Assembly (NCBI GenBank): GCA_947564835.1
Contig: CANOET010000001.1
Coordinates: forward strand, 8,667-72,666
Source: an uncultured Eubacterium sp.
Lineage (GTDB): Bacteria; Bacillota; Clostridia; Lachnospirales; Lachnospiraceae
DNA length: 64,000 bases
Direction: 5' to 3'
The notes beneath the pieces are model-generated. The model worked only from the letters and a program-made list of their open reading frames with translations, was not told the DNA's origin and made no database searches. Each line of letters begins with the position of its first letter. Position 1 is the first letter of the stretch. Made by a program: the position numbers and the translations under genes. Positions 1 to 11,414 of this stretch are shown here, one piece after another.

Positions 1-55
1 CCTTTCCCCTCATCTGGCGTCCGCATCTCCAATCAAAAACGCAACACAATGTCAA
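1..55. repeat. Partial copy (right end) of the dispersed palindromic element also seen at 51851-52125
   Basis: ccctcatctggcgtccgcatctccaatcaaaaacgcaacacaatgtcaa closely matches ccctcatccggcgtccgcatagccaacaaaaaaacgcaacataatatcaa at ~52078-52127. Confidence 0.7.
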
Positions 56-71
56 TTCCTGCCGCCCAGAA

Positions 72-434
72 TCAAAAAATCTCCTTCACAGCCTCCTTCA
101 CCTTTTTCAGCATTGGAAGCAGCTGATTTTCCAATGCATCGGCAATCTGCCGGTCTTCCTGACTACGCAAAGCATCCGCCAGTTTCATAACGGCATCATT
201 AATTTCACTCTTACTTAGTTTTTCCTCTTCCTCATTGATCAGGGATAAAGTACCGTTCAGCACCCCCATCTCCCAGTTTACTGCATCCGTAACACTTTTC
301 AACAATTGGTCCGTATCTTCTTTTTTTAAAGTAGTCAGTTCATCGATCAAAATTTCTGTATTTGCGATAAATTTCTCCTGAAAATCCGCCAATACTTTTA
401 CTGCTTCCAATTGTTCTTTTCTGTTGTTTTCCAT
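72..434 (-). CDS. Small helical protein of flagellin glycosylation islands, unknown function
   Basis: 120-aa ORF with AGGGAGG RBS, last gene of the leg operon; C-terminal D-x-x-I-A-D-A-L-E-x-x-L motif resembles the protein at 14398-14736. Confidence 0.7.
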   Translation of the reverse strand: MENNRKEQLEAVKVLADFQEKFIANTEILIDELTTLKKEDTDQLLKSVTDAVNWEMGVLNGTLSLINEEEEKLSKSEINDAVMKLADALRSQEDRQIADALENQLLPMLKKVKEAVKEIF

Positions 435-451
435 AGTATCCTCCCTGATTT

Positions 452-1066
452 TTATATCATATCAACAAAATCCCTCAAATCCCGGCAGACGAAATCAGCA
501 GTTACTTTCTGTTCCAGCCGCCGCGTACCATACCCGCTTTCCAGCAGCACCGTTTTTAATCCGGCATTCTGCCCGCAGATCACATCAGACGCCCGGTCTC
601 CGACGAGATAGGATCGCGCCATATCGATCGGAAACTGCTCCTGCGCCTGCCGCAGCATACCCGTCCGCGGTTTCCGGCAGCCGCACTGCTTCCGGTAAGA
701 ACCTGTTCCGTCAGGATGATGCGGGCAATAATAAATAGCATCCAGCCCCGTCTGCTGCTTTAGGTACGCATGGATTTCCTGCAGCGTTCCCTCGCTCATC
801 ATGCCGCGCGCGACAGCTGACTGATTTGTAATACAGACCGCAAGATAGCCTTTTTGGTGCAGCAAACTGATACAATCTTTTGTGTAAGGAAAGATTTCCA
901 ACTCTTCTGCTTGGGTAACATAGCTTTTTTCCACGCACAATACACCATCTCTGTCTAAAAATACTGCCGGCCTTTTTTTGTTATCTCTCTTATAACTGTT
1001 ATCCTTTTCCATGATTTTTTGCACCAACATCAGCCTTTTATTTTTTCTGCACTTTTTCCCTTTCAA
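452..1066 (-). CDS. gmhB: HAD-IIIA phosphatase (GmhB / heptose-1,7-bisphosphate phosphatase-like)
   Basis: FLDRDGV motif I, TNQS motif II, CPHHP...CxCRKP zinc motif, GDRASD motif; true start may be the ATG at 1012. Confidence 0.85.
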   Translation of the reverse strand: MKGKKCRKNKRLMLVQKIMEKDNSYKRDNKKRPAVFLDRDGVLCVEKSYVTQAEELEIFPYTKDCISLLHQKGYLAVCITNQSAVARGMMSEGTLQEIHAYLKQQTGLDAIYYCPHHPDGTGSYRKQCGCRKPRTGMLRQAQEQFPIDMARSYLVGDRASDVICGQNAGLKTVLLESGYGTRRLEQKVTADFVCRDLRDFVDMI

Positions 1067-1313
1067 ATGGCATTATAGTCTTAACAATTATATCATATTT
1101 CCATCCGCTTGCAAAGCAATAAAAAAATGAATTGCTTTATACGTACAATGTGGTTACAGTTCGCAGCTGTCCTGCTTTTGGGACAAGTGTGAACGGTAAC
1201 GATTTTTATTCTACACCGCTGTCTTGCACATAGATTGGTATAGCGCCTGGAAATATTTTGTGATATACTAATGGCATAACAAGAATACTATTTAAGTGAA
1301 CGGAGGTAATAAT

Positions 1314-1490
1314 ATGCCAAATAATGAAAAAGAATACAACGGATATCTTTTAGATCAGCTTGAACTAATCGAAAGGCTCGAAATGGCAATAGAAGATAAT
1401 AACATTGAGACGGTAAAAAAACAACTAGCACTTGAAAAAAAATTTGTTGAGCGTAAGTTGTACCAAAAACCACCGTTAAAAAGTGAATAA
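1314..1490 (+). CDS. 58-aa acidic/coiled-coil small protein, antisense to the operon
   Basis: GGAGGT RBS at 1302-1307, ATG 1314, TG-x-TATACT extended -10 near 1259-1269; AT-rich. Confidence 0.65.
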   Translation: MPNNEKEYNGYLLDQLELIERLEMAIEDNNIETVKKQLALEKKFVERKLYQKPPLKSE

Positions 1491-1567
1491 TATAGTTAAA
1501 TAGGATGTTAAGCGGCATCCTTTTTATCGTTAAAACAGACAGAATATCTGTTACTTTTCACGGGTCA

Positions 1568-1592
1568 GGAACGCGCACTAGCTGCGCGTTCC
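1568..1592. repeat. GC-rich perfect hairpin (REP-like or bidirectional terminator) between convergent genes
   Basis: GGAACGCGCA-ctagc-TGCGCGTTCC, 10-bp stem. Confidence 0.6.
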
Positions 1593-1649
1593 GTAAGAAC
1601 ATGATTCAGGAGTCCGGGGCATTTTTGCGAAGCCTTGAACCATAGGCAG

Positions 1650-2729
1650 CTATTCAGCCTTTAGATTAAGCTTCTGTTCCATCCGGCGCATTTCTTCAAA
1701 TTCACCCATATCTAAAAAAGAATCCTCGCTAATCGGATACATCCCGACCTGCATTCCCTTCTTTAACAAATCATCCGCAAGATCTGTCATATGATAAAAC
1801 GTATCTTTCGGAATACAGTCCAATAATTCCGGATTCAGAATATACATGCCCGTATTTACAAAATACGACATCTTCGGCTTTTCTTCCATGGAATTGACAA
1901 TCGCATTCTCCTTTGCATGAATGACCCCATACGGCACCACAATATTTTTCAGCGCTGTTACAATCGTCATCATATTCCCAGACTTGCAGTGATGCCGGTA
2001 AATATCGGCATAATCAGCGTCAATCAGGATATCGCAGTTCGTCACGATAAACGGCCTGCCAAATCCCGTTTCAATCAGCTTTAAGCTTCCCGCCGTACCA
2101 AGCGGCTTGGACTCTTCCACATAATCCATATGATAATTCGTCATTAAATCTGCAAAATAGGACTTAATCATCGTTTTGCGGTAATTCAGCGTCGCAATAA
2201 AATGCTTCACCCCATAATCGCAAAACCGTCCGATAATACGCTCCATAATCGGAACATCCCCGATCGGAATCAGCGGCTTTGGCAGAACCTTCGTATAAGG
2301 GTACAAACGTGTCCCCTTCCCGCCCGCCATAATAACAACATCTACATCCTGCAGTAAATGTTTTGCGAGGACTGGTATTTGCACACTGCCGCTTCCATCC
2401 CTGACAGCAATATCTACTACTTTGCCAGCCGGATTCAATACAGGCAGAACATTGATCTGCATCCGTTCCATATATTCTGATGCTGTGTGGATTTCCTTTA
2501 GACATATATATTTTGGAGATTTGTTCATCATCTCCGATATACGCTGCTGGAGATTCGCTGTTTTAATGATCCACCGGCGGATATCACCATCTGTAACGAC
2601 CCCTTCAAGCCTGCATCCTTCATCTACGATAAATAAGATCCCTTTTGCATTCGCATCAATTTTCTGCATGGCTTCTACGACAGTAATATTTCCCGCTGAT
2701 AAAAAACCTTTCAACTGCTCACTATTCAT
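1650..2729 (-). CDS. CBS-domain nucleotidyltransferase (PtmE/LegX-like sugar-phosphate guanylyltransferase)
   Basis: Two CBS domains (VVTDGDIRR) followed by MAGGKGTRLYPYT-KPL NTP-transferase motif; start set at MNSEQ (2729) with GGAGG upstream. Confidence 0.9.
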   Translation of the reverse strand: MNSEQLKGFLSAGNITVVEAMQKIDANAKGILFIVDEGCRLEGVVTDGDIRRWIIKTANLQQRISEMMNKSPKYICLKEIHTASEYMERMQINVLPVLNPAGKVVDIAVRDGSGSVQIPVLAKHLLQDVDVVIMAGGKGTRLYPYTKVLPKPLIPIGDVPIMERIIGRFCDYGVKHFIATLNYRKTMIKSYFADLMTNYHMDYVEESKPLGTAGSLKLIETGFGRPFIVTNCDILIDADYADIYRHHCKSGNMMTIVTALKNIVVPYGVIHAKENAIVNSMEEKPKMSYFVNTGMYILNPELLDCIPKDTFYHMTDLADDLLKKGMQVGMYPISEDSFLDMGEFEEMRRMEQKLNLKAE

Positions 2730-2929
2730 TTCTCCATCGTCCTCCCTGACTTCCTTCGCAAAACAGGGCATTCTCAATCCCTGCAGTCTTCCTGACTTCC
2801 TTTCGCTGTATAGAAAATTCCGATTATTTTCTATCGTCTTCCTGACTTCTTCTATAGATCTGTTTATACTAACTTGCACATGTAACTTTATACACACGCG
2901 GTATCTTTCATTAAAACGATCATGAGATT

Positions 2930-4111
2930 TTATTTACGCATATCTGTTATCGTTTCCATAACTTCCTTTGCCACATACCGGATTTCATCCTCCGTAATCT
3001 GTGTACTGCAAGGAAGGTTTAAAATACGTCTGCTATAATACTGCGCTCGCTCAATCTGATAAGCGATTGCCTGCTGATAAGGCTTTTGCTCATGGATCAG
3101 CCCCCAGATCGGCCGTGTCTGTATACCCTTCTCCTGTAGACGGCTGATCAGGTCAAACAGATCCCCTTTCAGTTCCCCAATCTCAATATCCAGCGAATAA
3201 AACCATTGATTTGAGCTTGTCCCTTCACGGAACGGCAGCAGCTGCCCCAAAGGAAACCCTTCAAACAGTTCCTGATAAAGCTGATAATTGCGCTGCTTTC
3301 TTTGAATAAACTCCGGCAATTCCTCCATCTGTGCCACGCCAAGCGCTGCCTGCAGATTTGTCATCCGGTAATTATATCCCACTTCATGATGAATATAGTT
3401 ATGCGGATCATCCTTGGCCTGTGTGGACAAATAACGCATATGCTCTACATCCTCCGCTCTCCGCGCAGTAACGGCGCCTCCGCCGCCAGTTGTAATAATT
3501 TTATTGCCGTTAAAAGAAAATGCCCCAAAATCCCCGATCGCACCGGCATATTTTCCGGCATACCTGCCTTTGGTATATTTCGTGCCAAGCGCCTCCGTTG
3601 CATCCTCAATCACCCATAAGCCATATGTATCCGCAATCTGCATGATCGCTTCAAGATCTGCCAGATTGCCAAAGACATGCACTACAATCAGTGCCTTTAC
3701 CCTTTTCCCTGTATCTTTATGCACGAGCCCGCCATCCGCCTTTACACATTCCTCCCGACAGAACCGCTCCAGCTTCACCGGATCCATACACAAGCTGTCA
3801 TCACAGTCCATAAAAACCGGATCCGCAAACTGGTATCTGACCGGATTAACTGCTGCAATAAACGTCAATGCCGGCACAACCACCAGATCCCCCGGCTGAA
3901 CACCGCATTTAATCAACGACAAATGCAATGCCGCAGTGCCGCTCTGGCAGGCCGCCGTCTGTTCCGTATGCAGAAAATCAGACATACGCCCCTCCAGTTC
4001 CCGGATATAAGCACCGCCGGTAGACACCCATCCCTGGCTGAGTGCATCATTCACATATTTCGCTTCATTTCCTTCAAAATTCGGAATGGATAATGGTATC
4101 ATAGTATTCAT
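2930..4111 (-). CDS. legC: LegC-family PLP aminotransferase (DegT/DnrJ/EryC1/StrS)
   Basis: SGTAALHL, EDATEALG, FSFNGNKIITTGGGG, GYNYRMTN motifs; adjacent to legB. Confidence 0.9.
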   Translation of the reverse strand: MNTMIPLSIPNFEGNEAKYVNDALSQGWVSTGGAYIRELEGRMSDFLHTEQTAACQSGTAALHLSLIKCGVQPGDLVVVPALTFIAAVNPVRYQFADPVFMDCDDSLCMDPVKLERFCREECVKADGGLVHKDTGKRVKALIVVHVFGNLADLEAIMQIADTYGLWVIEDATEALGTKYTKGRYAGKYAGAIGDFGAFSFNGNKIITTGGGGAVTARRAEDVEHMRYLSTQAKDDPHNYIHHEVGYNYRMTNLQAALGVAQMEELPEFIQRKQRNYQLYQELFEGFPLGQLLPFREGTSSNQWFYSLDIEIGELKGDLFDLISRLQEKGIQTRPIWGLIHEQKPYQQAIAYQIERAQYYSRRILNLPCSTQITEDEIRYVAKEVMETITDMRK

Positions 4112-4163
4112 CGATCAGCCTCCCGCTGCACATTCTTCCTTTTATATTTCGGACAAATTCCGG

Positions 4164-5144
4164 CTAAATATTATAGATATCCGTTTTATAATGATCCATA
4201 TGTTCCCTGAGCCATGCAATCGTTTCCTGAATCCCCTGTGCAAAAGTATATTGCTGCTTCCAGTCTGTGAGCGCTTTTATTTTCTCATTAGAACCAAGCA
4301 GGCGGTTAACCTCGCTTTTCTCCGGACGCAGACGCTGTTCTTCACATACAATGCTGGCATTAGGGTTAATCTGGGAAATAATCTCCTTTGCCAGATCACC
4401 GATCGAAATCTCCTGCTGCGTTGCGATATTAATTTCTTCCCCAACCGTCCGGTCTGATTCCGCAATAGCGATAAAGCCTGCCGCCGTATCTTTTACATAA
4501 TTGAAATCTCTGGTCGGCGTCAGGGAACCTAATTTGATCTCCTCTTTACCTGCCAGCAGCTGCGTAATAATTGTCGGAATCACTGCCCTGGCTGACTGTC
4601 TTGGGCCATAGGTGTTGAACGGACGCACAATAGATACCGGAAGCCCGAAGCTGCGGTAAAAGCTCTCCGCCAGGCGGTCTGCTCCGATTTTCGTTGCGGA
4701 GTATGGAGACTGGCCCTGGAATGGATGATGTTCATCGATCGGAACATATTGTGCGGTACCGTAGACTTCTGAGGTGGATGTTACAAGTACACGCTGCAGA
4801 TCCAGATCCCTGGCCGCCTGCAGGACATTTAACGTGCCTTTGATATTGGTATCCACATAGGAATCCGGGGAATGGTAGCTGAATGGGATGGCTATAAGAG
4901 CTGCCAGATGGAAAACAGCATCTGTGCCTTTTAGCGCCGTGCGTACGCCGTTCGGGTCGCGGATATCTCCGGTAAATACTTCGATCTGGTCCAGCTTTTC
5001 CTTTGGAAGCGTGTCCAGCCAGCCCCAGGTGTTGAAGGAATTGTAGTAGGCAAATGCCTTTACTTCGTAACCTTTTGCCAAAAGGCTTTCTGTGAGGTGG
5101 CTTCCGATGAAGCCGTCGGCTCCGGTAACTAATACTTTTTTCAT
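4164..5144 (-). CDS. legB: NAD-dependent nucleotide-sugar 4,6-dehydratase (LegB)
   Basis: TGADGFIGSH Rossmann motif, HLAALIAIPFSY, YSATK, RPFNTYGPRQS typical of LegB. Confidence 0.9.
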   Translation of the reverse strand: MKKVLVTGADGFIGSHLTESLLAKGYEVKAFAYYNSFNTWGWLDTLPKEKLDQIEVFTGDIRDPNGVRTALKGTDAVFHLAALIAIPFSYHSPDSYVDTNIKGTLNVLQAARDLDLQRVLVTSTSEVYGTAQYVPIDEHHPFQGQSPYSATKIGADRLAESFYRSFGLPVSIVRPFNTYGPRQSARAVIPTIITQLLAGKEEIKLGSLTPTRDFNYVKDTAAGFIAIAESDRTVGEEINIATQQEISIGDLAKEIISQINPNASIVCEEQRLRPEKSEVNRLLGSNEKIKALTDWKQQYTFAQGIQETIAWLREHMDHYKTDIYNI

Positions 5145-5303
5145 GGGAATATTGTCTCCTCTTTCTTATCATTTTCTTATACTATAACATGTTTCCTGAA
5201 TGCTGCATACTACTTTTTGATTCAATTATATTTCGTTTGCTTTTTTAATGATTGTATGTTATACTTAATTACAATCTTATTTTTAGAAGGAAGCTGTACA
5301 ATT

Positions 5304-6797
5304 ATGGACTTATTATACGATATTGATAAATGCATCAATGAGGCAAAAAATATCTTTGATCTTGTAGCAAACTGTTTTGACCTCCTATGCAGTCATATTA
5401 CCAATCATGCATTGTTCATCAGCCAATACATAGATCAGGGACAAGGTGATATAACGAACCCTAATATAGAAAATTTAAATGATTTTTCTGAAAAGGTTAT
5501 TAGAATATTAGATCATTATGCCCCGTCCAAATATTTTGATGTACAAAAAGAAATCATGCATCTTATAAATAATTTTAATTTAATCCAATTTCTGAATGAT
5601 CAGGAGAATCATTATACAATTATTTATTGTATACTATGTGCTATAGACGCCGCAGCAATGGAGTGGGACAGAAAATGGCTTACCTCTTCTTTCGGGCCAT
5701 TAAACAAGCAATCCAACGCAAGATACCGGGTCTACTTCCATACACACCGGACAATACATTCTGATTATATAGACCAGATTCATCGAAATCGGACTCACCC
5801 AAGTACATTTTTTGAACAGTTTCAAAGTTTCAGATTTATCGATTCCAGCCGGTGGAAAGAAAATATAAATGTACCGTATATAAAGTATTTGCCAGGAAAC
5901 TATATAAAAAAGAAACCTGAGGATATGCTAAACCCAGAGTTAAAATTAAAAATAGCCGTTATTCCTGTATCCTGTAATCAGAATTTTGACTTTAAACCTG
6001 TGATCGGAAGTGCGTTTCGGGTAGACTATTCAAAGAATGATCAATCAGCAGCAACAGAAGCTATTATAAAATCTATCGAAAAAGCGCTTCTTGCCGAATG
6101 TAATATTATTGTTCTTCCAGAATATACAATTAGCCCCGTAATCCACGAAGCTATACAAAAAACATTAAGAAAACATTCTTTTCAGAACTGCAACGGAAAT
6201 AAACTTTTTGCAGTATTTGAAGGCACAACCTGGACAGATGATGATAACAATATCATGCGCATATTAGATCCATTCGGTGATGAAATCGGAAGATATTATA
6301 AATACAGTCAATTCACAAAACCTAACACCGCAAAACATGGCTTTCACCACGTAGAAAGACTTACCAATCCCGGAAAACAATGCGACATGCTGGCACTTGA
6401 AGGAATTGGACTATTTCTACCGGCTATATGCAGAGATGTAATTGACGGTGAATATACCGCAGAAATTGCCAAAGCACTTTTTCCTGCATTTACAGTAATT
6501 TCTGCCTGGAGCCCTTCTGTAGCTTCCTTTGAAAGCCGGGAAAAAGAATTAGCCAATAAATATTTTACATCTTCCATTTTTGCAAATGCATGCAGTTCGG
6601 TCGACAAAAACTCGCATACGATTTGTAATGGATGTATTGTGAATAAAGAAAATACAATAGCAGGCGCATGGATCCGTAATCTTGACAGAAACAATTGCAT
6701 CGCAACTTGTACGAAAGAAGCGTGTGTTTTTATTATGGAATATGATTTTACTTTTGGATCAGGCCATAATACTTGCATAACAGCACAAAAAATATAA
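5304..6797 (+). CDS. Protein with C-terminal carbon-nitrogen hydrolase (nitrilase-fold) domain and unknown N-terminal half
   Basis: KIAVIP, IIVLPEY (Glu), RYYKYS (Lys), PAICRD (Cys) triad pattern; AT-rich, antisense to the operon. Confidence 0.7.
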   Translation: MDLLYDIDKCINEAKNIFDLVANCFDLLCSHITNHALFISQYIDQGQGDITNPNIENLNDFSEKVIRILDHYAPSKYFDVQKEIMHLINNFNLIQFLNDQENHYTIIYCILCAIDAAAMEWDRKWLTSSFGPLNKQSNARYRVYFHTHRTIHSDYIDQIHRNRTHPSTFFEQFQSFRFIDSSRWKENINVPYIKYLPGNYIKKKPEDMLNPELKLKIAVIPVSCNQNFDFKPVIGSAFRVDYSKNDQSAATEAIIKSIEKALLAECNIIVLPEYTISPVIHEAIQKTLRKHSFQNCNGNKLFAVFEGTTWTDDDNNIMRILDPFGDEIGRYYKYSQFTKPNTAKHGFHHVERLTNPGKQCDMLALEGIGLFLPAICRDVIDGEYTAEIAKALFPAFTVISAWSPSVASFESREKELANKYFTSSIFANACSSVDKNSHTICNGCIVNKENTIAGAWIRNLDRNNCIATCTKEACVFIMEYDFTFGSGHNTCITAQKI

Positions 6798-6889
6798 TAT
6801 CTACACAATGAATGATATCATTATTGTTGAAAAATTTGTCATCACATGATAAACTATTTATAAATAATATAGAAAAGAGATGCATCAAT

Positions 6890-7735
6890 ATGAAGCAGCT
6901 AATTACTATTATATCTAATTATATATCAAAAAGAGAAATTATACCGGATGAATATCTATACGAATTTTCTACTGAAATTACATCCGCAATTGAATCTAGT
7001 GATACAGAACGCATTCCTGATGAATTTTGGCAATTAGCAAATTATGTAGAACTGTACTGGAGAGGCCAAAAATATACTTGCGATGATAGTCCGGAAAGGA
7101 TATATCAAATGGGCCAGTTACTGTCTTTTACTAAAATGATCGATATCTGGTTTGATCGAATAGAAACGAGTACTTCATTAACCGAATATGCGATCATCAT
7201 GAATAGCAAATACTCCTTCTTCAAAAGCATTCATGACGAATCCGGCATTACCCACAAAGAATTGGCCAGCAGGATGCATACAAGTGTATCTTCTTTATCG
7301 CAATTTGTCAATAAAATACAAGGGAACGGATTCTTTATTTCCCGTCCTATGGGCAGGGAAAAGCATTACTATTTAACACAAAAAGGCGAGAAAATTTATG
7401 AACTGATAACAAAAAGGCAATACGCTGCTGTATCAAAAAATTCGACTACAGTATATGGGAGTATATTATATGGGGGTATATTTAGCAGCCAGAACAAACA
7501 ACAATATTATTCTAGTCCACATAAACTTTTAAATTCCAGATACAATTACAATACAGAAAATGTTAGCATAGATTTTACTGAAAATCCTCGAATTATTAAT
7601 CTAATAACATCTAATGTTAGCATTGATATTACTGAAAATCCAGGTATTATAAAACTAATAACATCTAATTATAGAAGTGAGGTAAGAGAATGGAGCAAAA
7701 ACAATTTACTGAAAAAGATAGAATTCAACTGCTGA
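6890..7735 (+). CDS. MarR-like winged-helix protein with low-complexity C-terminal tail
   Basis: GITHKELASRMHTSVSSLSQFVNKI...GREKHYYLTQKG wHTH pattern. Confidence 0.7.
   Translation: MKQLITIISNYISKREIIPDEYLYEFSTEITSAIESSDTERIPDEFWQLANYVELYWRGQKYTCDDSPERIYQMGQLLSFTKMIDIWFDRIETSTSLTEYAIIMNSKYSFFKSIHDESGITHKELASRMHTSVSSLSQFVNKIQGNGFFISRPMGREKHYYLTQKGEKIYELITKRQYAAVSKNSTTVYGSILYGGIFSSQNKQQYYSSPHKLLNSRYNYNTENVSIDFTENPRIINLITSNVSIDITENPGIIKLITSNYRSEVREWSKNNLLKKIEFNC
7559..7666 (+). repeat. 54-bp tandem duplication (2 copies) in the tail of the MarR-like gene
   Basis: NVSIDFTENPRIINLITS / NVSIDITENPGIIKLITS. Confidence 0.85.
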
Positions 7736-8388
7736 TCACAGAACTTCTGCAAACTTCATCCGGAGACCAGACAGATCTAGCCTATGCAGTTTATGAGCTA
7801 ATTGAACAATCCGAACATTTTAAACCAGAATTATTCATGTTTTTTATTGAAACTTCAGAAGATCTTGATACCAGCGAAGAAAAACGTATTGAAAAAATAT
7901 TTTCTGAAGAAGAAAAATACCAATACGCCAGAGATTATGGCAAAATTATTGATGGGACATTAGAAGCGCTATTAAAAAAACATTATGAAAAAGAAAAATT
8001 CTATCAGGAACTTTGGAATTTCATAGAAGAAAACCCTTTGCTTGACACGAAAAAGCTCAAAGCCTTTGCACTTTTTTATATTTGGGTAGATATTAGACTG
8101 CCTTATTATGTACTCGATGATGGTATCAAAATGTCTGATGACGATTACCAGGATATCTGTCAGAAGCTTTCAGAAGACATCAAAAAAGCCCGATTTATTT
8201 TACACGTACCTACCGAGCAAAAAACAGAACGTGCTTCCAGAATCGTAAAATTACTGGAAAGCTTACAGGATGACAAAGAAAAGGCTGTCCTTATGGCACA
8301 TATTTTAAAATTAAGCGACCATTCTGATATGATTTTAAATCGCTTAGCAATCAGAGCAGAAAAACTATCTAAAAATGAAATTTCTTAA
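7690..8388 (+). CDS. Acidic all-helical hypothetical protein, third gene of the AT-rich cassette
   Basis: 232-aa ORF with GAGGT RBS, overlaps upstream gene by 46 nt. Confidence 0.75.
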   Translation: MEQKQFTEKDRIQLLITELLQTSSGDQTDLAYAVYELIEQSEHFKPELFMFFIETSEDLDTSEEKRIEKIFSEEEKYQYARDYGKIIDGTLEALLKKHYEKEKFYQELWNFIEENPLLDTKKLKAFALFYIWVDIRLPYYVLDDGIKMSDDDYQDICQKLSEDIKKARFILHVPTEQKTERASRIVKLLESLQDDKEKAVLMAHILKLSDHSDMILNRLAIRAEKLSKNEIS

Positions 8389-8484
8389 CAGGTTAAATTG
8401 CGTCCCTGACTATTTATGATACAATATACTGGAATAATCCTTTCCAATATATTGTATCATATTGCAGCCGTTGGCTCCAAAACT

Positions 8485-9177
8485 TCAACTTGTTTTATAA
8501 TTTTTCATATATGTTTCTATCAGCAGAAAATCAATTATAGTATCAATATCCACAGACCGTTCATTTGGCATAATATAAGCATAAGAATCTTTATCATACA
8601 AATTTCCATGCTTCATCAAAAATTCCACATTCACCAGATAAATTGCCCCATTAATCCTATAATTCGTAGGCAGCTGCTGCCTTGGCAGCTCATATTCCGG
8701 ACACTGAAACGCCTTCATATTTCCATCCTCCGATAATGTATTGCACCATAACGGTGTATGCTCCATCTCACATACACCAATTACTGCCTCTGCATTTTTT
8801 TCCTCTATCAAAGAAAATGCATTTTGAATATCCCCTGCCGTACGCAAGGGGGAGGTCGGCTGCAAGAGCATCACACGATCAAATTTCTGCCCCATTTTTT
8901 CATATTTGCATAGCACATCCCGCACCGCATCCCAACAATCGGCTGAGTCTGATGCCAATTCTTCCTCTCTTAAAAACGGTACCTCTGCTCCATATTCTTT
9001 TGCAATCTGTGCATATTCTTCACTATCCGTAGAAACATGGATACAGTCAAAGCATTCTGACATGTGTGCCGCTTCTATGGAATATGCCATTAATGGTTTT
9101 CCGTGTAATCGTTTTATATTTTTATCCTTTAATCCCTTAGATCCGCTTCTGGCTGTTATAACTGCTATATTCCTCAT
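8485..9177 (-). CDS. neuA: CMP-nonulosonate synthetase (acylneuraminate cytidylyltransferase), copy 1
   Basis: ARSGSKGLKDKN, LQPTSPLR, NGAIY, SVDID motifs. Confidence 0.93.
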   Translation of the reverse strand: MRNIAVITARSGSKGLKDKNIKRLHGKPLMAYSIEAAHMSECFDCIHVSTDSEEYAQIAKEYGAEVPFLREEELASDSADCWDAVRDVLCKYEKMGQKFDRVMLLQPTSPLRTAGDIQNAFSLIEEKNAEAVIGVCEMEHTPLWCNTLSEDGNMKAFQCPEYELPRQQLPTNYRINGAIYLVNVEFLMKHGNLYDKDSYAYIMPNERSVDIDTIIDFLLIETYMKNYKTS

Positions 9178-9257
9178 TTCGACACCTACTTTGCATAATC
9201 AAATTTTATACTATATTAGCATATTTTTGAACAATCAGCAATCACCTGGCTAAAATA
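8500..9257. repeat. Direct repeat A: neuA plus 3' remnant of the GT-D gene
   Basis: Matches ~10656-11414 (offset ~2156); ~8735-9153 appears identical by eye; includes tatttttgaa-aatcagcaat-acctggctaaaata from the GT-D 3' end. Confidence 0.9.
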
Positions 9258-9349: not shown

Positions 9350-9730
9350 TCAACGATTTAATTTTGCCGTATTAATTGGCGGCAAAACAATTGGCATCAT
9401 TCCTGGTTGTGTTGTCATTAATGAAACCTGACTCCTAATAAATGGAAACATAATCGCTATTGTATTATTATTCACAATGCTCTCTTCACGTTCATAATCA
9501 TCCGCTTCATATATGAATACTGCTTCTGCTTTTAAAAATAGTTCAAAATCAACTTTACTAATCGTTAATTCAGCTTCAACATTATAATTATGATTACCCA
9601 AATTAATGATTTTTCTTTCAAAATTAGCATTGTACTCACCATCTGCTATTTTTTGTTCTCTCTTAAAAGCACATTTACTGAAAAACAAATTTTCCATTTT
9701 AAGACTTGATTCTAATTTTTTTATGTCCAT
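9350..9730 (-). CDS. SecB-like chaperone (TAC-type)
   Basis: 126 aa; NNTIAIMFPFIRSQVSLMTTQPGMMPIVLPPIN matches the SecB C-terminal signature (FPY/F-R...T...P...LP-IN). Confidence 0.85.
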   Translation of the reverse strand: MDIKKLESSLKMENLFFSKCAFKREQKIADGEYNANFERKIINLGNHNYNVEAELTISKVDFELFLKAEAVFIYEADDYEREESIVNNNTIAIMFPFIRSQVSLMTTQPGMMPIVLPPINTAKLNR

Positions 9731-9742
9731 ACATTCCCTCCC

Positions 9743-10009
9743 TTATGCAGCAAGCTCTAACTCAGCTGTTACATTACACTCAACAATATCCATGTAACTA
9801 TCTGCTGCAAAACTTGTCACATAATTGTTATATTCCAATCGTTCATCAGAATACCAATCTGGAATCGTATGCTGATCCGCCTCCTGCAAGAAACTACCGC
9901 CAAAAATTTTTTCAAATGAATCTGGAGCATCCGATTCTGAAACTGTCACATTCACACCAAAACTCTCCTTTGCAAACGCAATAAAGTCCTGTAACATTTT
10001 TTCCATCAT
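9743..10009 (-). CDS. Putative antitoxin with aromatic/acidic chaperone-addiction-like tail ending in LAA
   Basis: 88-aa acidic ORF between toxin-like and SecB-like genes; GGAGG RBS; C-terminus ...AELELAA. Confidence 0.65.
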   Translation of the reverse strand: MMEKMLQDFIAFAKESFGVNVTVSESDAPDSFEKIFGGSFLQEADQHTIPDWYSDERLEYNNYVTSFAADSYMDIVECNVTAELELAA

Positions 10010-10024
10010 GAAAGACCTCCTTTT

Positions 10025-10594
10025 TCATCTTATATTTTCTAATATAGTATTATCTTTGACACAATATATTGTTTCTATTCCAAAAACCATATCTAATTTT
10101 TGAGCAAACTCAATTGCATGTTCGTATAATGGCTGAACTCTTTGTCTAAAATGTCCAATCACGAGTTTCTTTTGAAATGTTTGAGTATAATATGCTATAA
10201 ACATTGCCCTCAACTGTATAATTCTTTCGTGTTCATCATTAATATCCTGAATGTGAACCTCTTTCCCAGATAAAATCCGAGAAACAAATTCTTCAAAATT
10301 ACAAAGATCTTTATGTACGCGCATATCAAATATTTTTTCTTTATCAATATCTATAATATCAGCAAAAATAACTGCAGATTGTATCTTTTTTCCCGTCATC
10401 TCCTTTATTTGCCTGCACTTTCTGTCCGCCGCCCACCATGCCTTTGCTTTTATATCATAAAAATACACTCCTTCTCCACACCAATTCCCATCAGCCTTAC
10501 TCAAAACAAACCCATTTTTCTTTATTTTATTAGCAGAAATCACATCTGTTCCATGACACAGATCCCTAAATGTCTCTGTATACATCTTTAGCAT
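10025..10594 (-). CDS. ADP-ribosyltransferase-like toxin (CmdT-like)
   Basis: CHGTD...GF...WCGEGVYFY pattern of H-Y clade ARTs; start may be ATG 10585. Confidence 0.7.
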   Translation of the reverse strand: MLKMYTETFRDLCHGTDVISANKIKKNGFVLSKADGNWCGEGVYFYDIKAKAWWAADRKCRQIKEMTGKKIQSAVIFADIIDIDKEKIFDMRVHKDLCNFEEFVSRILSGKEVHIQDINDEHERIIQLRAMFIAYYTQTFQKKLVIGHFRQRVQPLYEHAIEFAQKLDMVFGIETIYCVKDNTILENIR

Positions 10595-10643: not shown

Positions 10644-11333
10644 TTATCCCTTAATTTGATTCATATACGTCTCTACCATTAAAAAATCAACCATATTATC
10701 AATATCCACAGAACGTTCATTCGGCATTATATAAGCATAGGAATCTTTATCATACAAATTTCCATGTTTCATCAGAAATGCCACATTTACCAAATAAATC
10801 GCCCCATTAATCCTATAATAAACAGGCAGCTGCTGTCTTGGCCGTTCATATTCCGGACTCTGAAATGCCTTCATATTTCCATCCTCCGGTAATGTATTGC
10901 ACCATAACGGTGTATGCTCCATCTCACATACACCAATTACTGCCTCTGCATTTTTTTCCTCTATCAAAGAAAATGCATTTTGAATATCCCCTGCCGTACG
11001 CAAGGGGGAGGTCGGCTGCAAGAGCATCACACGATCAAATTTCTGCCCCATTTTTTCATATTTGCATAGCACATCCCGCACCGCATCCCAACAATCGGCT
11101 GAGTCTGATGCCAATTCTTCCTCTCTTAAAAACGGTACCTCTGCTCCATATTCTTTTGCAATCTGTGCATATTCTTCACTATCCGTAGAAACATGGATAC
11201 AGTCAAAGCATTCTGACATGTGTGCCGCTTCTATGGAATATGCCATTAATGGTTTTCCGTGTAATCGTTTTATATTTTTATCCTTTAATCCCTTAGATCC
11301 GCTTCTGGCAGTTATAACTGCTATGTTCTTCAT
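10644..11333 (-). CDS. neuA: CMP-nonulosonate synthetase, copy 2
   Basis: Near-identical to 8485-9177; same motifs. Confidence 0.93.
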   Translation of the reverse strand: MKNIAVITARSGSKGLKDKNIKRLHGKPLMAYSIEAAHMSECFDCIHVSTDSEEYAQIAKEYGAEVPFLREEELASDSADCWDAVRDVLCKYEKMGQKFDRVMLLQPTSPLRTAGDIQNAFSLIEEKNAEAVIGVCEMEHTPLWCNTLPEDGNMKAFQSPEYERPRQQLPVYYRINGAIYLVNVAFLMKHGNLYDKDSYAYIMPNERSVDIDNMVDFLMVETYMNQIKG

Positions 11334-11414
11334 TTCAACACCTACTTTACATGATCACCTTCCGAGACTATATTATCATATTTTTGAAAAATCAGCAATA
11401 ACCTGGCTAAAATA
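10656..11414. repeat. Direct repeat B: neuA plus 3' end of the intact GT-D gene
   Basis: Partner of 8500-9257. Confidence 0.9.

Follow-up and report, generated by a model that had tools for sequence, protein, structure and literature searches.

Layout and boundaries of the cassette

The window analysed here, 64,000 nucleotides of the forward strand of contig CANOET010000001.1 (positions 8,667 to 72,666; assembly GCA_947564835.1) from an uncultured Eubacterium sp. of the Lachnospiraceae, carries at positions 5304-8388 three close-set open reading frames (ORFs) on the plus strand, here termed A, B and C, with all surrounding genes on the minus strand. A first-pass annotation of the same DNA had described an AT-rich three-gene cassette placed backwards between neuA and legB, and the ORFs are indeed found there, between minus-strand flanks and with a GC content of 33% (0.33) as against 0.41 for the whole window, 0.46 for the leg genes upstream and 0.41-0.46 for the flanks. 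The present data indicate that A, B and C are inherited together as a mobile unit, in which a very divergent nitrilase-superfamily enzyme is tied to a winged-helix protein and to a partner of unmatched fold. What is new is a candidate conflict system in which a known effector fold appears in a new architecture. The features of the cassette are as follows.

5174-5303, plus strand: upstream region with candidate promoter, ribosome-binding site (RBS) and inverted repeats, as read from the sequence
5304-6797, plus strand: gene A, 497 aa
6890-7735, plus strand: gene B, 281 aa
7690-8388, plus strand: gene C, 232 aa
8415-8461, no strand assigned: hairpin of 47 nt between C and the convergent neuA-like gene

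The start of B at ATG 6890 follows from the alignment of homologues and from gene calls on identical contigs (L013-L015), and replaces the start at 6812 given in the ORF list, which yields a 307-aa reading. The last 46 nt of B are at the same time the first of C, and the GAGG RBS of C is located within B. The ATG of A at 5304 is preceded by the RBS GAAGGAAG, and further upstream a possible extended -10 promoter can be read (TTGCTT at 5237-5242, TG at 5257-5258 and TATACT at 5260-5265), a candidate that a consensus promoter scan did not list before A, while the short inverted repeats TATAACAT (5183-5190) and ATGTTATA (5256-5263) could form an operator. A promoter-like upstream region is present on each homologous cassette too. 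At the opposite end, the hairpin folds as RNA at -30 kcal/mol (z -5.1), a value equalled by 0 of 200 shuffles, and is a probable terminator shared by C and the neuA-like gene. As homology to the window stops precisely at 8461 in the metagenome strains X18 and X19, where a different neuA allele without a toxin-antitoxin-chaperone (TAC) module follows, the hairpin is taken to be the right-hand edge of the cassette block. No non-coding RNA or tRNA was detected at the cassette.

A divergent nitrilase-superfamily enzyme and its two partners

Protein A comprises a family-specific domain (residues 1 to ~215) followed by a nitrilase-superfamily carbon-nitrogen (C-N) hydrolase domain (residues ~216-497). 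Its AlphaFold2 (AF2) model, computed with 41 homologues, has a predicted local distance difference test score (pLDDT) of 90.3 and a predicted template modelling score (pTM) of 0.90, and a Foldseek search of this model against the PDB returned 163 matches at E<=1e-3, the top 50 of which all belong to the nitrilase superfamily at a probability of 1.00. The best of these, Nit2, AmiF, carbamoylases and the glutaminase domain of NAD synthetase, were matched at E values down to 3e-9 with only 10-15% identity; template modelling (TM) scores normalised to the target were 0.4-0.6, and the alpha-beta-beta-alpha four-layer sandwich of the superfamily is present. In the family profile, E273 (in a PE motif), K333 and C376 (in C-R-D) align with the PE, K and C-x-D motifs of yeast Nit3. 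E273, K333, E351 and C376 are invariant across the 41 homologues, and among 124 full-length representatives of the family sharing less than 50% mutual identity they are present in 123, 124, 124 and 124, respectively, a retention which argues that the enzyme chemistry of A is under strict selection. Sequence models recover this relationship poorly, as Pfam CN_hydrolase (PF00795) scores A below threshold (14.6 bits versus a cut-off of 23.2, E 0.02) and a weak precomputed PF00795 match exists on a few homologues; across Pfam, NCBIfam, PADLOC and PHROGs, nothing rose above threshold for A. On the basis of fold and catalytic residues, A is therefore filed as a divergent member of the nitrilase superfamily that belongs to no named branch.

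Four further cysteines of A are largely conserved, namely C430 (122/124), C465 (91/124), C469 (107/124) and C474 (111/124), and may constitute a putative structural metal site. The N-terminal domain is built of six helices and a small beta part and displays conserved NPN, GPLN and Y-x-V-Y motifs. Pfam and PDB sequence searches gave no relatives for residues 1 to ~215, the PDB profile matches (RpiR at E 0.1, RanBP2) being noise. No hydrophobic stretch suggestive of an export signal was seen in A, B or C, and A is, from its model and sequence, predicted to be a cytoplasmic, catalytically competent and very divergent C-N hydrolase of the nitrilase superfamily. The family is large and wholly without annotation: 73 full-length homologues, none of them named, occur in a 90%-clustered collection, and a profile of A run against 1.84 billion representatives gave 1021 matches at E<=1e-3, 574 at E<=1e-10 and 185 at E<=1e-30. 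The family thus amounts to at least 185 clusters at 50% identity (E<=1e-30), mostly from gut Lachnospiraceae, and nearly all of the best 150 profile matches are ~490-590 aa long and aligned end to end.

Protein B has an acidic helical N-terminal domain (residues ~1-100, isoelectric point (pI) 4.3), a winged helix-turn-helix (wHTH) domain (~105-180, pI 9.8) and a variable basic tail. A profile of 20 B homologues matched the winged helices of SlyA (1lj9, E 7.7e-6), SmtB (E 8e-5) and further MarR/ArsR chains in the PDB. Pfam MarR fell below its cut-off on B (19.5 bits versus 24.6, E 1e-3), covering residues 138-174 of the 307-aa reading, and the sole PADLOC match of B was to the generic wHTH end of the CARF3 models (E 1e-6). 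These matches identify B, at the level of sequence, as a winged-helix protein predicted to bind DNA, which is MarR/ArsR-like and not a canonical MarR. The tail of B also contains a 54-bp tandem duplication (7559-7666, copies 87% identical) encoding NVSIDFTENPRIINLITS / NVSIDITENPGIIKLITS, which is missing from homologues.

Protein C is acidic (pI 4.9) and all-helical, with ten helices in an AF2 model of pLDDT 94.4 and pTM 0.80. Its fold is unmatched, the best hits being at E 1.2 in the PDB and E 0.09 in BFVD, and its sequence has no match in PDB, Pfam, NCBIfam, PADLOC or PHROGs. A, B and C have no domain in common (hhalign probabilities <1%). Much of what the first-pass annotation had read from the letters is upheld by these results: the E-K-C nitrilase triad of A, by the Nit3 motif alignment, the invariance within the family and the nitrilase fold found by Foldseek; the wHTH protein, by the SlyA match; and the acidic helical protein, by the pI and the model of C. 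The N-terminal domain of A, said to be of no familiar kind, is still without relatives, and its size is revised from ~240 aa to ~215 residues.

Co-inheritance, mobility and decay of the trio

Some 25 distinct genomic contexts were inspected, the trio being checked by local profile searches. In all 21 intact loci for which the contig is long enough, A, B and C stand in the same order and on the same strand, in different species and at identities down to 24-28%, and the most distant B homologue found (24% identity) again has A and C alongside. Pairwise identities of A, B and C are correlated over 210 locus pairs (r 0.70-0.81), and the B and C genes overlap in 17/21 loci, which suggests coupled synthesis of B and C. 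The three genes are always co-inherited as a trio. Carriers are mostly Lachnospiraceae (Acetatifactor, Mediterraneibacter, Roseburia and Lacrimispora), with further copies in Oscillospiraceae and in two metagenome-assembled genomes labelled Bacteroidales and Chloroflexi; cultured carriers are Lachnospiraceae bacterium JLR.KK009 (complete chromosome CP143549) and Lacrimispora sp. 210928-DFI.3.58. The insertion site is different in nearly every species, and such varied sites, taken with the cassette's own promoter-like region, its strong hairpin, its low GC content and its inversion in the leg operon, mark it as autonomous and mobile. The trio is accordingly a horizontally transferred unit that moves among unrelated chromosomal sites, islands and one prophage.

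Where the cassette decays, it is A that is broken or lost, in four loci with partner genes surviving. A is frameshifted in L021 and in L024, the 343-aa fragment of the latter recurring on 13 contigs, and is truncated in L033, which has also lost C and shares its chromosomal site with the intact L037. In L039, a close relative (80% nucleotide identity over the B tail, C and neuA), A has been replaced together with most of B, and the B tail, C and neuA are retained. Such preferential loss of A fits a costly or dangerous effector. The replacing block in L039 consists of small minus-strand genes, among whose products are an HTH_38 protein, an N6_N4 methylase and a protein with a faint REP_ORF2-G2P match. 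The block resembles a small mobile element or a phage that has integrated there.

A known defence or toxin-antitoxin (TA) gene lies within about 4 genes of the cassette in 7 of ~25 contexts, a small sample counted without a matched background. Neighbours of this kind are listed by locus.

L030: Gabija GajA (E 3e-209) and GajB (E 5e-169)
L022: type I restriction-modification methylase (E 0)
L025: SMC-like mad3/LmuB ATPase
L004: IetA (E 1e-128) and S8 protease (IetAS)
L005: AbiH, in a locus that also holds glycosyltransferase/GtrA genes
L001 and L016: ParE/RelB
Window copy: SecB-type TAC module between two neuA copies

Integrase, relaxase or prophage genes adjoin the cassette in six further contexts, with coordinates given within the respective locus.

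L010: integrase and helix-turn-helix genes
L003 and L020: MobA/MobL relaxase
L034: YD-shell polymorphic-toxin region with integrase
L035, 11500-17542: integrase fragment, csrA and two flagellin genes, one encoding a protein of 541 aa and the other a giant of at least 1612 aa
L039, 1-6500: Rep/methylase element
L041, 5300-12400: two Bro-N antirepressor genes (one with KilAC), a NUMOD3 protein and a phage integrase around the trio

L041, an uncultivated viral genome (UViG) of 90.8 kb, is the one viral-contig copy of the trio in IMG/VR, and the trio occupies a prophage accessory or moron position within it. The other contexts consist of housekeeping or metabolic genes. A link of the cassette to defence and mobile DNA thus appears genuine but moderate; ten other large neighbour proteins gave no PADLOC match. 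A separate observation concerns L042, where PNP_UDP_1 occurs twice in the region (1-5300) upstream of a distant trio, fused to Response_reg in one protein and in another protein of 463 aa, together with an 8xMP membrane protein and three unknown genes, a set that looks like another, separate conflict system.

The co-conservation, autonomy, mobility and B/C coupling of the trio would also fit a tripartite TA or addiction module without a dedicated anti-phage role, on the pattern of omega-epsilon-zeta or paaR-paaA-parE, in which A would be a large enzymatic toxin, C (or B and C together) the antitoxin and B an autoregulator, such that loss of the cassette kills the cell. Decay of A with its partners remaining is also the usual path of TA erosion, and other TA modules do adjoin the cassette. 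However, A is a protein of 57 kDa with an extra 215-residue domain, far above the usual size of a type II toxin, no plasmid copy was found in PLSDB, and no known toxin or antitoxin family was matched in Pfam, NCBIfam or PADLOC. This explanation is therefore considered unlikely, although TA and defence roles overlap and the two are for that reason hard to separate.

The setting of the window copy invites a different explanation. Its left flank encodes LegB (TIGR04180, 523 bits, above cut-off), LegC and a CBS-nucleotidyltransferase and its right flank a PseF/NeuA-type cytidylyltransferase, all on the minus strand; these flanks belong to a flagellin glycosylation island that also holds a GT-D protein, a Maf-like protein and flagellin. 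The cassette could be supposed to modify or regulate the surface glycan or flagellin locus around it, for instance with a nonulosonic acid as the target of A, which would hydrolyse its amide or amidino group, and with B regulating glycosylation genes, as the window copy lies inside a legionaminic-acid locus, C stands beside neuA in another nonulosonate locus of the close relative L039, and the trio is found beside csrA and flagellin genes in L035 and in the glycosyltransferase/GtrA locus of L005. However, ~20 other contexts are without glycan genes, the cassette is AT-rich, self-contained and inverted, its orientation being opposite to that of the leg operon and the cytidylyltransferase genes, and recombination is known to concentrate in glycan loci, which accounts for the coincidence. 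A tailoring role of this kind is very improbable. In the species of the window, all 23 contigs with an identical LegB also hold the trio, and no contig without it, that is, no empty-site allele, was found among four metagenomes.

Other variation was seen to the right of the cassette. A direct duplication of neuA-like sequence (8504-9257 and 10660-11414, ~90-94% identical over the parts found) encloses, at 9350-10594, a SecB-like 126-aa gene and a 189-aa gene that make up the SecB-type TAC module; the duplicated neuA/SecB segment is missing in X18 and X19, where the other neuA allele comes after the trio. Copy 1 of the neuA-like gene (minus strand) contains a T7 tract at 8793-8799 (coding A7), for which several metagenome and RNA-Seq contigs carry an allele with a 1-nt deletion, and in L013 and L014 this copy was called as two pieces of 131 and 76/77 aa. 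Slippage at the tract may switch the cytidylyltransferase on and off.

Metabolic neighbours bear on yet another possibility, that of a regulated catabolic or detoxifying amidase or nitrilase operon, in which B would be a ligand-responsive MarR-like repressor, A would cleave an amide or nitrile derived from the gut, and C would be an accessory or chaperone subunit. The folds nearest to A are small-molecule amidases (Nit2 omega-amidase, formamidase AmiF and carbamoylases), enzymes which often stand under MarR-type regulators, and the trio lies beside FmdA/AmdA and glutamate synthase in L007, L026 and L027 and within sugar-uptake operons in L018. However, neither a transporter nor another pathway enzyme is co-conserved with A, B and C, each site has different metabolic neighbours, and the gltB link reduces to a single insertion site in two sister species. 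The obligatory orphan C, the island and prophage sites and the repeated pseudogenisation likewise fit a catabolic operon poorly, and the probability given to it is low. A metabolic link to glutamate synthase was dropped, as the 1520-aa neighbour in L024 is unrelated to the GltB of L026, and L026 and L027 represent one site.

A candidate conflict system and its relation to known systems

Taken as a whole, the conserved enzyme, its DNA-binding partner, the coupled orphan partner, the mobility of the cassette and the decay of the effector make up the anatomy of a conflict module. The favoured, if tentative, interpretation is therefore that the trio is one autonomous mobile operon encoding an anti-phage conflict system of the abortive-infection type, to which we assign somewhat less than an even chance. 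This model proposes that the cassette promoter is repressed, and/or A kept inactive, by B acting alone or together with C, and that C or the acidic N-terminal domain of B would detect a trigger, for example a protein made by a phage or a perturbed state of the cell. Once freed, A would cleave an amide or nitrile bond of an essential metabolite or protein, possibly NAD+, glutamine or asparagine, a protein side chain or an N-terminus, and this activity would halt growth of the infected cell. A more specific form of the model, doubtful as it stands, would make the cassette the first nitrilase immune system free of a reverse transcriptase (RT), in which B and C, the latter with its new fold, silence A until phage infection, whereupon A destroys an amide-bearing metabolite (NAD+ or glutamine) or deamidates a key protein and so aborts the infection. 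The small probability left over after this conflict system and the three other explanations goes to something unforeseen.

Several observations weigh against the proposed anti-phage role. Screens for defence islands apply a criterion of ~65% association, and the 7 of ~25 contexts with a defence or TA neighbour fall below it. No copy of the trio was found among INPHARED phages or PLSDB plasmids, and many loci lie amid tRNA synthetase, sugar-uptake or nitrogen-metabolism genes. Effector modularity is typical of defence families, and no effector swap on a retained B-C pair was seen in the inspected loci. The roles proposed for B and C are drawn from domain type and gene overlap, and are to be read as conditional. 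Expression data are of limited help here: contigs from rat gut (three runs labelled RNA-Seq) cover the cassette at the same depth as the neighbouring genes, one contig starting at 5174, one stopping at 8452 and one (6764-7479) bridging the A-B junction. These contigs lend weak support to an A-B co-transcript, as the depth is flat and on both strands, so that DNA carry-over is possible in these runs.

The first-pass annotation had proposed a candidate novel defence or TA module, and this is partly supported. Neither outcome that it had named as refuting was seen, as the trio is strictly co-conserved and A does not sit in a fixed metabolic context with housekeeping amidases. The cassette corresponds to no PADLOC model; the association with defence neighbours is only moderate, and several contexts are plain housekeeping or sugar metabolism. 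A novel module of this kind thus stands as the best reading of the data and not as a finding. The data describe a large and wholly unannotated family in which an intact nitrilase tetrad is tied to two partners, one of them unmatched in PDB and BFVD, on a cassette that is mobile among abundant gut Clostridia. If the cassette serves defence or addiction, its pairing of effector and sensor would be a new architecture, and a simple model in which the targets of such hydrolases could be found, whereas if it is catabolic it would still be a new nitrilase branch with an unusual, obligatory pair of partners. If the RT-free immune system in particular holds, a simple three-protein system spread among gut Lachnospiraceae would make the substrate class of nitrilase effectors, that of DRT1 included, tractable to study. 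Experiments are feasible, as copies exist in cultured strains.

Full-text literature searches gave no paper on a nitrilase-wHTH system or on the A-B-C trio. The first-pass annotation had likewise recognised no system and noted that no RT is present, and both points stand: no RT family was detected in A, B or C (Pfam, NCBIfam and PADLOC), the neighbours of the cassette are leg/neuA genes, and in PADLOC-DB 2.0 there are 0 matches for C and, at E<=1 and with all DRT models included, 0 for A. Effectors with a nitrilase fold have been recognised in bacterial immunity only recently and are still poorly understood. The closest functional parallel is provided by the class 3 UG/Abi RT systems DRT1 and UG5 'RT-nitrilase-Tm', in which a nitrilase domain is the effector (PMC13275509, PMC9122126, PMC9226505, PMC13436386); defence nitrilases have been described only as RT-fused, and the substrate of the effector is unknown (PMC13275509). 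The cassette resembles DRT1/UG1 and UG5 in that a nitrilase domain with an intact tetrad is the presumed effector of a mobile, island-borne module (PMC13275509, PMC9122126, PMC13436386). However, it has no RT, alpha-repeat or transmembrane partner, its partners being a wHTH protein and a protein of orphan fold, and its hosts are gut Clostridia, whereas those of DRT1 and UG5 are Proteobacteria.

Among structurally characterised enzymes, Nit2 (2w1v, 4hg3), AmiF (2e2k, 5g3o) and Nit3 (1f89) have the same fold as A and an equivalently placed E-K-E-C tetrad; A differs from the Nit/omega-amidases, formamidases and carbamoylases in its ~215-residue N-terminal domain, its cysteine cluster and its obligatory link to B and C. 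Residues ~105-180 of B match the winged helix of MarR/SlyA, ArsR/SmtB and Csa3-type (CARF3) proteins, but B is without detectable MarR dimerisation helices or CARF domain and has instead its own acidic N-terminal domain and basic tail. Finally, omega-epsilon-zeta and paaR-paaA-parE follow a three-gene logic on mobile DNA, in which an enzyme is accompanied by a neutralising partner and a dedicated DNA-binding regulator. The mobile cassette would share this logic, but has no relation to these systems in sequence or fold, places its enzyme gene first and encodes an enzyme ~5 times the size of a typical toxin.

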